Shown here: one piece after another, positions 3,636 through 4,838 of the stretch
Numbering within the stretch: position 1 is the first letter of the stretch
Layout: each line of letters opens with the position of its first letter
IMG/VR virus record: IMGVR_UViG_2703718801_000021
Coordinates: 1-9,473 of that record
Source: a virus
Lineage: Duplodnaviria; Heunggongvirae; Uroviricota; Caudoviricetes
Strand: one strand, 5' to 3'
DNA: 9,473 bases
Translations under genes and position numbers: made by a program
The notes under the pieces: model-generated
What the model was told of the DNA's origin: nothing
Seen by the model: the letters and a program-made list of their open reading frames with translations, nothing else
Database searches by the model: none

Positions 3636-4080
3636 TGACTGCCTCCTTCTTAATCAGTTTACACAGGTGCTCCACAGCCACAGAGAGTGCATCCACCGCT
3701 CGTTTATCCAGACGCGGGGCCAGAGCAAGCAGTTCATTTATTGCAATCTGAATACCATGCTCCGCCGCCAGCGCCGCGCGATTGCTCTCCAGCTCTGCAA
3801 TTTGGCACATGGCATCAATATTTTTGTCCTCCAGGCGCTTAATTTCGCCTAGGAGGTCCAGCGCAACTTTTGGTGGGATAGCCGCGATATAACGGGCATT
3901 GGCACTAGCGTTCCTCTGTCCATCAGTACCAGGCCAGTCAATAAAGTATCCGCAATGCCTACCCTCAGACGTGCGCGCAGGATAAATGCCGTTATGGCCC
4001 GGCAAAATATATGCTACCCATTCATCTTGCGTTGCCTGTTTCGCCGCCTCGCGCAGTTCTTTATAGTTAATTTCGCTCAC
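3622..4080 (-). CDS. Ead/Ea22-like protein paralog, 152 aa
   Basis: N-terminus [17 protein letters not shown] and ..[12 protein letters not shown] share the module of the downstream paralog. GTG start at 4080 is preceded by AGGAGGCA with a 7-nt spacer. The 3' end overlaps the next gene's start by 14 nt. Confidence 0.75.
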
Positions 4081-4244
4081 TGCTTGCCTCCTTTACGCCA
4101 CATCGCATTCAGATATTTGTTTTGATTCACTGAAGGAAAAGAATTTCTCTTAAGCAATTCCTCTCTCGATGGCATTGGCTTTACGCGTTGGCGAATAATC
4201 ATTTCTGCTGGAAGAATGCCGGGATTGTATGCAAGTCCTCTCAT
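4077..4244 (-). CDS. Hypothetical small protein, 55 aa ([55 protein letters not shown])
   Basis: Hand-translated; below the ORF-track cut-off. ATG at 4244..4242 overlaps the TGA stop of the upstream gene (ATGA) and is preceded by GGAGAG. Its own TGA overlaps the GTG start of the Ead paralog (GTGA). Confidence 0.35.
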
Positions 4245-4549
4245 GATTTACTCTCCACGAACTGGTCAATAGCCATGCTAAGTGACACACCTAAATTCTC
4301 GATATGTTGCTGAATATCCTGTAGCGTCTGCGCCTGAGATAACATGATTTCACGGTTGCATAATTCTTTAACCAGATGCTCAAACTTGCTGTAATAACCG
4401 ATACGACTTAGTGTTTCTTTCCCTGCATTCTCGCCTTCTTTGATAATTCCTCTTTCGCTAAGAATCAGGTCGTGTTTGGTTCCGGTAATAACGTATTTTC
4501 CGAGGTCGATGTTTAGCTTCATTGTTTTCATTGTTAATTCCTCAGTCAT
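4241..4549 (-). CDS. Hypothetical protein, about 96-102 aa ([40 protein letters not shown]...)
   Basis: This is the internal start of ORF-track entry 4241..4684; the long form would overlap the upstream gene in another frame. Candidate starts are ATG at 4549 (overlapping the upstream stop, ATGACTGA) or ATG at 4531, which is preceded by GAGGAA with an 8-nt spacer. No recognised family. Confidence 0.5.
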
Positions 4550-4838
4550 TACTGATAGCGCCATAGCGTGAGCGGTAATTACGCAGGCGCGGGTCGATAT
4601 ATTCAGGGAAGTGGGTATATGTGGCTTTGCGGAATGGTCGGATTGATGTCTGGTAAATTCTCTCGCGTTCTTCTTTCTCTGCAAGCCATATACAATGGCG
4701 AAATTCCTTTTCCTCTTTTGTTTCCTGCGGTAGCGACATTATCTGGTCGTAGTTTTTCCTGAATTTATCCAGCACCTCCGATACGGAATTGCCGGAACAG
4801 CGGCGCGGATCATCCGCACCATACAGAGGCGCTGGCAT
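4542..4838 (-). CDS. Hypothetical basic protein, 98 aa; sits where abc-type anti-RecBCD genes lie in P22-like phages
   Basis: ATG at 4838 is preceded by AGGA. It follows the SSB-like gene on the same strand. I cannot confirm homology to Abc2 from memory; the suggestion is positional and by size only. Confidence 0.55.
   Translation of the reverse strand: MPAPLYGADDPRRCSGNSVSEVLDKFRKNYDQIMSLPQETKEEKEFRHCIWLAEKEERERIYQTSIRPFRKATYTHFPEYIDPRLRNYRSRYGAISND

Follow-up and report, generated by a model that had tools for sequence, protein, structure and literature searches.

The stretch of viral DNA considered here, which we call the window, comprises 9,473 nucleotides (nt) at positions 1 to 9,473 of the IMG/VR virus record IMGVR_UViG_2703718801_000021 (Caudoviricetes) and is the left arm of a lambdoid Escherichia coli prophage whose genes lie on the minus strand. 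Our subject is a run of three small, adjoining open reading frames (ORFs) at 4077–4838, which an earlier note had described as a chained unit whose products matched no family that could be named. The best explanation, to which we would assign a probability of roughly 85%, is that these are three separate, individually swappable, and already catalogued genes of the early-left (pL) operon, namely abc2 (ORF1), a gene of the DUF5405 family (ORF2), and a gene of the DUF2737 family (ORF3). All three products score above the Pfam gathering score of their respective families (PF11043, PF17399, and PF10930) and are annotated in Sf6, ES18, HK446, and RefSeq E. coli genomes, which removes the claim that they lack a family. 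The trio is laid out as follows, with lengths in amino acids (aa):

4542–4838, minus strand: abc2 (ORF1), 98 aa; ATG at 4838 with AAGGA upstream; PF11043
4532–4544, minus strand: junction of abc2 and ORF2; the stop TGA overlaps the Shine–Dalgarno sequence (TGAGGA), followed by a 7-nt spacer and the ATG at 4531
4241–4531, minus strand: DUF5405 gene (ORF2), 96 aa from its most likely start; an alternative start at 4522 gives 93 aa; PF17399, phrog_154
4077–4244, minus strand: DUF2737 gene (ORF3), 55 aa; PF10930, phrog_1117

The minus strand carries all three ORFs with the stops given in the earlier note, and their slot between the Erf/SSB-like genes and the Ead/Ea22 genes is confirmed, as are their common orientation and tight packing. 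The coordinates proposed for ORF1 and ORF3 are exact; for ORF2, the stop at 4241 stands and the start at 4549 probably does not, for reasons given below. The ratio of nonsynonymous to synonymous substitution (dN/dS), computed against P22, ES18, Sf6, and mEp043, is 0.08–0.24 for ORF1, 0.12–0.17 for ORF2, and 0.16–0.35 for ORF3. The reading frames, whose conservation had been proposed as a check, are thus conserved under purifying selection (0.08–0.35 overall), and all three are therefore real coding genes and not chance ORFs.

ORF1 is, by homology, Abc2, the textbook anti-RecBCD protein, which bears out the guess that the earlier note had ventured from the size of the product. It matches PF11043 (Anti-RecBCD_p2) with an E-value of 3.5e-62 and 207.1 bits (cut-off 25), residues 1–98 aligning to positions 1–97 of the 97-position profile, and phrog_656 ("abc2 anti-RecBCD") at E 1.1e-56; it is 93% identical to P22 Abc2 over the full length and matches chain A (Abc2) of PDB entries 8B1T and 8B1U at E 1.3e-56. 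In these structures, Abc2 is an extended helical protein, of which residues 3–66 are modelled on RecC, while Pro68 sits in the active site of the host protein PpiB; Abc2 affects the helicase and nuclease activities only moderately, and only RecB, RecC, RecD, and Abc2 were co-expressed to reconstitute and solve the RecBCD–Abc2 complex, with which host PpiB co-purified (PMC9836394). Compared with P22 Abc2, ORF1 carries two substitutions in residues 1–66 and keeps Pro68 (motif IRPFRK), the other differences being some substitutions near the C terminus and an insertion of one residue.

The surroundings of ORF1 agree with this identification, and the slot is, as the earlier note had pointed out, the one in which P22-like phages keep their anti-RecBCD genes. 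In P22 and in the prophage alike, abc2 belongs to the erf recombination module, but the prophage has an SSB-like gene between erf and abc2 where P22 has abc1 and, unlike P22, has no Arf homologue. The 127-aa SSB-like protein matches phrog_44 (SSB) at E 1.9e-28 and has a weak TIGR00621 match, none in Pfam, and no BLASTP alignment to Abc1; its counterpart in mEp043 is annotated as similar to HK97 gp40, which has been classed as an SSB of type SSB-1b (PMC12315714). On the strength of the phrog_44 match and the likeness to HK97 gp40, the module reads Erf, SSB-1b-like, Abc2, which is a canonical arrangement, Abc2 being one of four anti-RecBCD types found in lambdoid recombination modules (PMC12315714). 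The comparison with P22 Abc1 and Abc2 that the earlier note had suggested therefore succeeds for Abc2, in ORF1, and fails for Abc1, which is matched neither by ORF2 nor by the SSB-like protein.

ORF2 is assigned by profile and sequence comparison to DUF5405, the family of Sf6 gp24, ES18 gp45, P2-type Orf83, and phage 186 gp31. It scores 25.9 bits against PF17399 (cut-off 21.6) and E 2e-32 against phrog_154, and the PF17399 match recurs in 36 of 37 aligned homologues. The record of Sf6 had already noted the similarity of gp24 to P2 Orf83; ORF2 is about 33% identical to its homologues in P2-like phages (tblastn), and a family profile made from our alignment of homologues (alignment A1) matches L-413C Orf83 at E 1.4e-23 and 186 gp31 (CP83) at E 9.6e-21 (Z = 1e6), with no match to P2-type Orf81, Dhr, Fil, Abc1, or Arf. 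ORF2 and these P2-type proteins are of the same size (about 91 aa), and all are encoded by early-operon genes; in P2 and 186, however, the DUF5405 gene has the replication nickase gene A on one side and a gene for a TraR/DksA-like zinc-finger protein on the other, accompanied in 186 by an exonuclease gene, whereas in the prophage it is placed after the recombination module. An exhaustive profile search returned 911 DUF5405 clusters (50% identity) at E ≤0.001, nearly all of them stand-alone proteins of 85–100 aa, and the phages that carry them include P22-like and other lambdoid phages, P2-like phages, N4-like virulent phages (FSL SP-076), and an Erwinia phage.

The AlphaFold2 model of ORF2 is confident (pLDDT 89) and predicts four beta strands (residues 6–47) followed by two helices (50–64 and 70–95). 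Conservation within the family is highest in a Leu-x-Glu of strand 3, in an NAGxE loop that joins strands 3 and 4, and in the stretch that opens helix 1. A Foldseek search of the BFVD viral models with the ORF2 model retrieved only DUF5405 proteins or uncharacterised phage proteins, including those of Bacillus, Lactobacillus, and Cellulophaga phages, with query-normalised TM-scores of 0.74–0.85 to the models named DUF5405. The PDB gave no sequence match to ORF2 even at E 10 and no convincing match to the fold of the model. A literature search on DUF5405 found nothing, and one on P2 orf83 nothing functional; the record of phage 186 describes its DUF5405 gene as of "unknown function; not essential".

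ORF3 is likewise placed, from its matches to PF10930 (E 8.8e-32, 109.2 bits, cut-off 25) and phrog_1117 (E 1.3e-37), in the DUF2737 family. It has the same length as P22 Orf56 and is 77% identical to it, and record notes equate its family with Sf6 gp23, ES18 gp44, HK97 gp38, and HK620 HkaI. Both P22 orf56 and the ORF3 gene come directly after the recombination module, yet in P22 orf56 follows abc2 directly and eaE is next, whereas in the prophage a DUF5405 gene is inserted ahead of DUF2737 and an Ea22 gene follows. Homologues of this basic protein turned up in Escherichia, Salmonella, and Shigella only; they measure 54–58 aa and share at least about 70% identity. AlphaFold2 modelled ORF3 poorly (pLDDT 65, pTM 0.25), as three short helices, and this suggests that ORF3 is not an autonomous fold and is probably disordered. 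No PDB sequence matched ORF3 even at E 10, and a literature search on DUF2737 returned nothing relevant, no function being recorded in the sources searched. The families of ORF2 and ORF3 are thus long catalogued in classic phages (P22, Sf6, ES18, HK97, P2, and 186), and the trio itself is already known. In Sf6 (genes 25-24-23), as in HK446 and in the prophages of E. coli O104:H4 and 55989, it has the same order and the same junctions as in the window; Sf6 differs from the prophage in having a bacterial-type SSB gene and an extra gene between erf and abc2, and in having gene 22 after gene 23, where the prophage has its Ea22 gene.

The junctions between the genes bear on how closely they are tied to one another. 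ORF2 has three in-frame ATGs, at 4549, 4531, and 4522, the last of which is the start placed by RefSeq. The start is most likely the ATG at 4531 rather than that at 4549, because the conserved DUF5405 protein begins at MKLNI in 36 homologues (alignment A1), because GAGGA lies 7 nt upstream of the ATG at 4531, which is also the position of the start annotated for Sf6 gp24, and because the ATG at 4549, which is formed from the Asn-Asp codons that close abc2, is missing in P22 and ES18, where abc2 ends in Asn-Asn (AAT AAC TGA). Since 4549 is not a conserved start, the "ATGACTGA" that the earlier note had listed as the first of its overlapping stop/start signals is simply the last codons of Abc2 and not a conserved start/stop overlap. 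The conserved junction instead has the abc2 stop TGA inside TGAGGA, followed by 7 nt and an ATG, and it precedes DUF2737 in mEp043 and P22 as it precedes DUF5405 in ES18 and in the window. The two other links of the proposed chain, namely the ATGA overlap of ORF2 with ORF3 and the GTGA overlap of ORF3 with the Ea22 gene, are real and conserved. Start/stop overlaps or gaps of 1–2 nt are, however, the rule along the whole run from erf to the DUF551 gene, so that the trio is not singled out by its overlaps. A consensus scan found no promoter-like and no minus-strand terminator-like site within 4077–4838; the only terminator-like site reported there is on the plus strand (4733–4750), and the nearest on the minus strand (4004–3987) lies downstream, inside the Ea22 gene.

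Whether the three genes form one unit or travel independently was assessed by their linkage in 75 IMG/VR loci that have a near-identical DUF2737 gene and at least 1 kb of upstream sequence. Directly upstream of DUF2737 there is abc2 in 55 loci, a DUF5405 gene preceded by abc2 in nine, a DUF5405 gene behind a RecT-type module, with no abc2, in eight, and neither abc2 nor DUF5405 in the remaining three. Queries for related loci returned only loci of 95–100% identity, and more distant contexts were taken from annotated phage records: SPN9CC has erf-abc1-abc2-DUF5405 with no DUF2737, and the P2-like, N4-like, and Erwinia phages have DUF5405 alone. From these differing combinations across related phages, we conclude that the three genes assort independently at mosaic junctions and are probably not one functional unit, and that neither DUF5405 nor DUF2737 is likely to be an obligate partner of Abc2. 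DUF2737 stands directly after the recombination module whether this is of the Erf/Abc2 or the RecT type. In the relatives that have no abc2 (about 1000–2706 of these loci), a protein of about 300 aa that is taken as RecT-like, together with 160-aa and 104-aa proteins, is encoded upstream of DUF5405/DUF2737, and this putative RecT-type module joins the same DUF5405 or DUF2737 junction.

It could still be argued that the trio is a single translationally coupled unit with a novel anti-defence function, ORF2 and ORF3 for instance assisting Abc2 against RecBCD, and the tight packing, the ATGA and GTGA overlaps, and the stop-overlapping Shine–Dalgarno sequence would suit such a unit, as would the position of DUF2737 after abc2 in P22, mEp043, Sf6, and ES18. 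Moreover, all 78 of the 78 loci with the same ORF2 variant keep the trio intact, with abc2 directly upstream and DUF2737 directly downstream; given a sample that is 95–100% identical, this may be due to a recent shared ancestry and not to a functional tie. Taken as a test of the unit, then, two of the three overlaps are real, and co-occurrence is constant in the closest lineage but variable across relatives. The other combinations counted above, the solitary DUF5405 genes of P2-like and N4-like phages, the extension of the overlaps from erf to the DUF551 gene, and the solution of the RecBCD–Abc2 complex with no further phage proteins (PMC9836394) all speak against a unit, and we regard it as improbable; the differing combinations and the common overlaps likewise tell against the single unit that the earlier note had suggested.

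Two further proposals concern the identity of ORF2, and we consider both very improbable. PHROG labels phrog_154 "replication initiation protein", several RefSeq annotations, including those of Sf6 gp24 and ES18 gp45, carry the same label, and the P2-like gene adjoins the replication nickase gene A. Against an initiator, however, the original GenBank notes for Sf6 gp24 and ES18 gp45 read "function unknown", the 186 homologue is noted as not essential, this prophage type has, in a related RefSeq locus, O/P-type replication genes of its own, and the only named BFVD relative that bears the label is an annotation of phage phiKT. ORF2 matched no initiator family in Pfam, no PDB sequence, and no convincing fold, and the identity was rejected; the widely spread label was probably propagated from an untested annotation and looks unfounded for DUF5405. 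The idea that ORF2 functionally replaces P22 Abc1 draws on the want of an Abc1 homologue in the window and on the fact that both are small proteins of similar size encoded beside abc2. P22 Abc1 has been described as a helix-turn-helix protein (preprint 10.1101/2023.04.06.535777), whereas the ORF2 model has a four-strand sheet and two helices and no helix-turn-helix; the two sequences show no similarity (BLASTP E 3.3; no match in the profile search), abc1 and DUF5405 coexist in SPN9CC, and most abc2-carrying relatives have neither. Lack of similarity, differing predicted fold, and coexistence in SPN9CC together rule out ORF2 as Abc1.

A less remote alternative, unlikely though worth keeping in mind, is that DUF5405, DUF2737, or both serve counter-defence or host takeover, as cargo of the ea region typically does, without dependence on Abc2. 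Both genes are small, early-expressed, and variably present, both lie where the recombination module gives way, at a mosaic boundary, to the ea genes, DUF5405 is spread over very different phages, and a P2-type DUF5405 (UDP0003) was among 200 accessory genes chosen for a screen (preprint 10.1101/2023.04.06.535777). The main text of that preprint, however, does not mention "orf3" and discusses no phenotype for it, which is weak evidence against an easily scored phenotype, and the unusual conservation of DUF2737 (at least 70% identity) is a poor fit to an arms-race gene. None of the trio proteins was found in the supplements of PMC12373910, and a PADLOC scan matched none of them. It is possible, if doubtful, that DUF5405 or DUF2737 is an undescribed host-directed factor whose target would be a defence system or the DNA repair or replication of the host, reached through a fold with no solved relative.

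Under the preferred reading of three separate operon genes, the trio would be made from an N-antiterminated early-left transcript, whose presumed source is the pL-like promoter match at 7946–7918, and translation would run from abc2 through DUF5405 and DUF2737 to Ea22 by close coupling. Abc2 would bind RecC, leaving the helicase running while Chi-dependent activation is stopped and RecBCD is diverted from Chi-dependent RecA loading; this mechanism, shown for P22 Abc2, is carried over to ORF1 by reason of the 93% identity of the proteins. The ends processed by RecBCD would then probably serve the phage Erf/SSB pathway instead of the phage DNA being destroyed. DUF5405 and DUF2737 would then be dispensable-looking accessory early genes that open the ea region, the former a compact predicted sheet-and-helix protein encoded in many types of phage, as a rule next to genes of replication or recombination, and the latter a basic and largely unstructured peptide that would fold on a partner. 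Our best guess is that both are small protein-binding modulators, probably with targets in DNA metabolism or host takeover. Several considerations weigh against this picture: besides the unbroken linkage in the 78 loci, which makes a functional link among the three genes possible within the lineage of the window itself, co-transcription is read from a consensus scan, the binding of RecC by the Abc2 of this prophage is inferred from homology, and the role as modulators is a guess from size, fold, and context.

The wider context is that of an ordinary stretch of a lambda-like prophage. Two bovine E. coli chromosomes carry the 762-base-pair (bp) region of the trio at 100% identity, and the region shares 96–98% DNA identity with Shigella phage Sf6, HK446, and the prophages of E. 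coli O104:H4 and 55989, in whose records the three products are already labelled "phage anti-RecBCD protein", "DUF5405 family protein", and "DUF2737 family protein". Matches to this region occur in 229 phage records; of 5426 complete E. coli genomes, 1376 match some part of it, and 154 cover at least 80% of its length. No complete RefSeq genome matched the whole window from end to end, the best coverage being 88%, and the window is a mosaic. A scan with NCBIfam gave nothing meaningful for the trio, and an Rfam scan of the window found no RNA family. Besides the trio, the window holds the following features, together with several small ORFs between erf and ral and an N-like gene near the cI-like repressor gene:

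75–1361, minus strand: integrase
1395–1649, minus strand: excisionase
2136–2726, minus strand: DUF551 gene
2922–3635, minus strand: Ead/Ea22 gene, 237 aa
3622–4080, minus strand: short Ead/Ea22-like gene, 152 aa; PF13935 E 2e-17; its GTG start overlaps the DUF2737 stop
4862–5245, minus strand: SSB-like gene, 127 aa, HK97 gp40 type; phrog_44
5245–5850, minus strand: erf, single-strand annealing protein; PF04404 E 3.4e-44; 74% identity to P22 Erf
6618–7067, minus strand: 149-aa ORF between ral and the kil/cIII-like small ORFs
7126–7326, minus strand: ral; 74% identity to P22 Ral
7918–7946, minus strand: pL-like promoter match (TTGACT, 17 nt, TACTAT) from the consensus scan, just downstream of the cI-like repressor gene
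8073–8774, minus strand: cI-like repressor

Some of these neighbours deserve comment in their own right. The Ral-family restriction-alleviation gene at 7126–7326, which a related RefSeq locus labels "antirestriction Ral family protein", is a known anti-defence gene of the same operon, and a terminator-like hairpin at 7137–7116 overlaps its start. The 149-aa ORF next to it (6618–7067) has no match in Pfam, NCBIfam, or PADLOC; towards both its N and its C terminus it resembles AEW47744.1 of phage SPN9CC, a protein with two predicted membrane segments that is gene UDP0047 in an accessory-gene screen (preprint 10.1101/2023.04.06.535777). The earlier note had named the trio as the best candidate in the window for an undescribed accessory function, which holds in the weak sense that DUF5405 and DUF2737 are without known function but not otherwise, both being old, catalogued families; the 149-aa ORF is a better candidate uncharacterised accessory gene than the trio.

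In the Ead/Ea22-like protein encoded at 2922–3635, residues 126–224, in the C-terminal half, match the PADLOC model PDLC02890 ("DpdH") at E 1.6e-36; either a passenger gene of a prophage served to build this defence model, or a protein of the Dpd island has a domain in common with Ea22-type proteins. The short Ea22-like gene at 3622–4080 is intact in the window, whereas its counterpart in E. coli OkiPb01680, which carries the closest RefSeq prophage, is flagged by RefSeq as an incomplete pseudogene (9759–10082 of a locus that is otherwise identical). Between the repressor and N genes, OkiPb01680 also has an insertion with a HigB-type toxin gene, a helix-turn-helix gene, and one more ORF (4253–5594 of its locus); the corresponding stretch of the window (7800–8072) is only about 270 bp, and the difference is a mosaic one at a known hotspot for cargo. 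A single Chi site (GCTGGTGG) is present in the window, at 1769–1776 on the plus strand, which is not a significant enrichment, since shuffled sequences are expected to hold 0.2 sites and 39 of 200 shuffles held at least one.

The discovery value of the trio is accordingly small, given that it is headed by a textbook anti-RecBCD gene and that its arrangement is already present in Sf6, HK446, ES18, and many E. coli prophages. For annotation, the start of DUF5405 genes that adjoin abc2 is best set at the ATG that lies 7 nt past the stop-overlapping Shine–Dalgarno sequence. The interest that remains lies in the functions of the two companion families: DUF5405, a large, phage-wide family of about 900 clusters whose phages, temperate as well as virulent, have both Gram-negative and Gram-positive hosts, and whose confidently predicted fold has no solved relative; and DUF2737, a strikingly conserved peptide.

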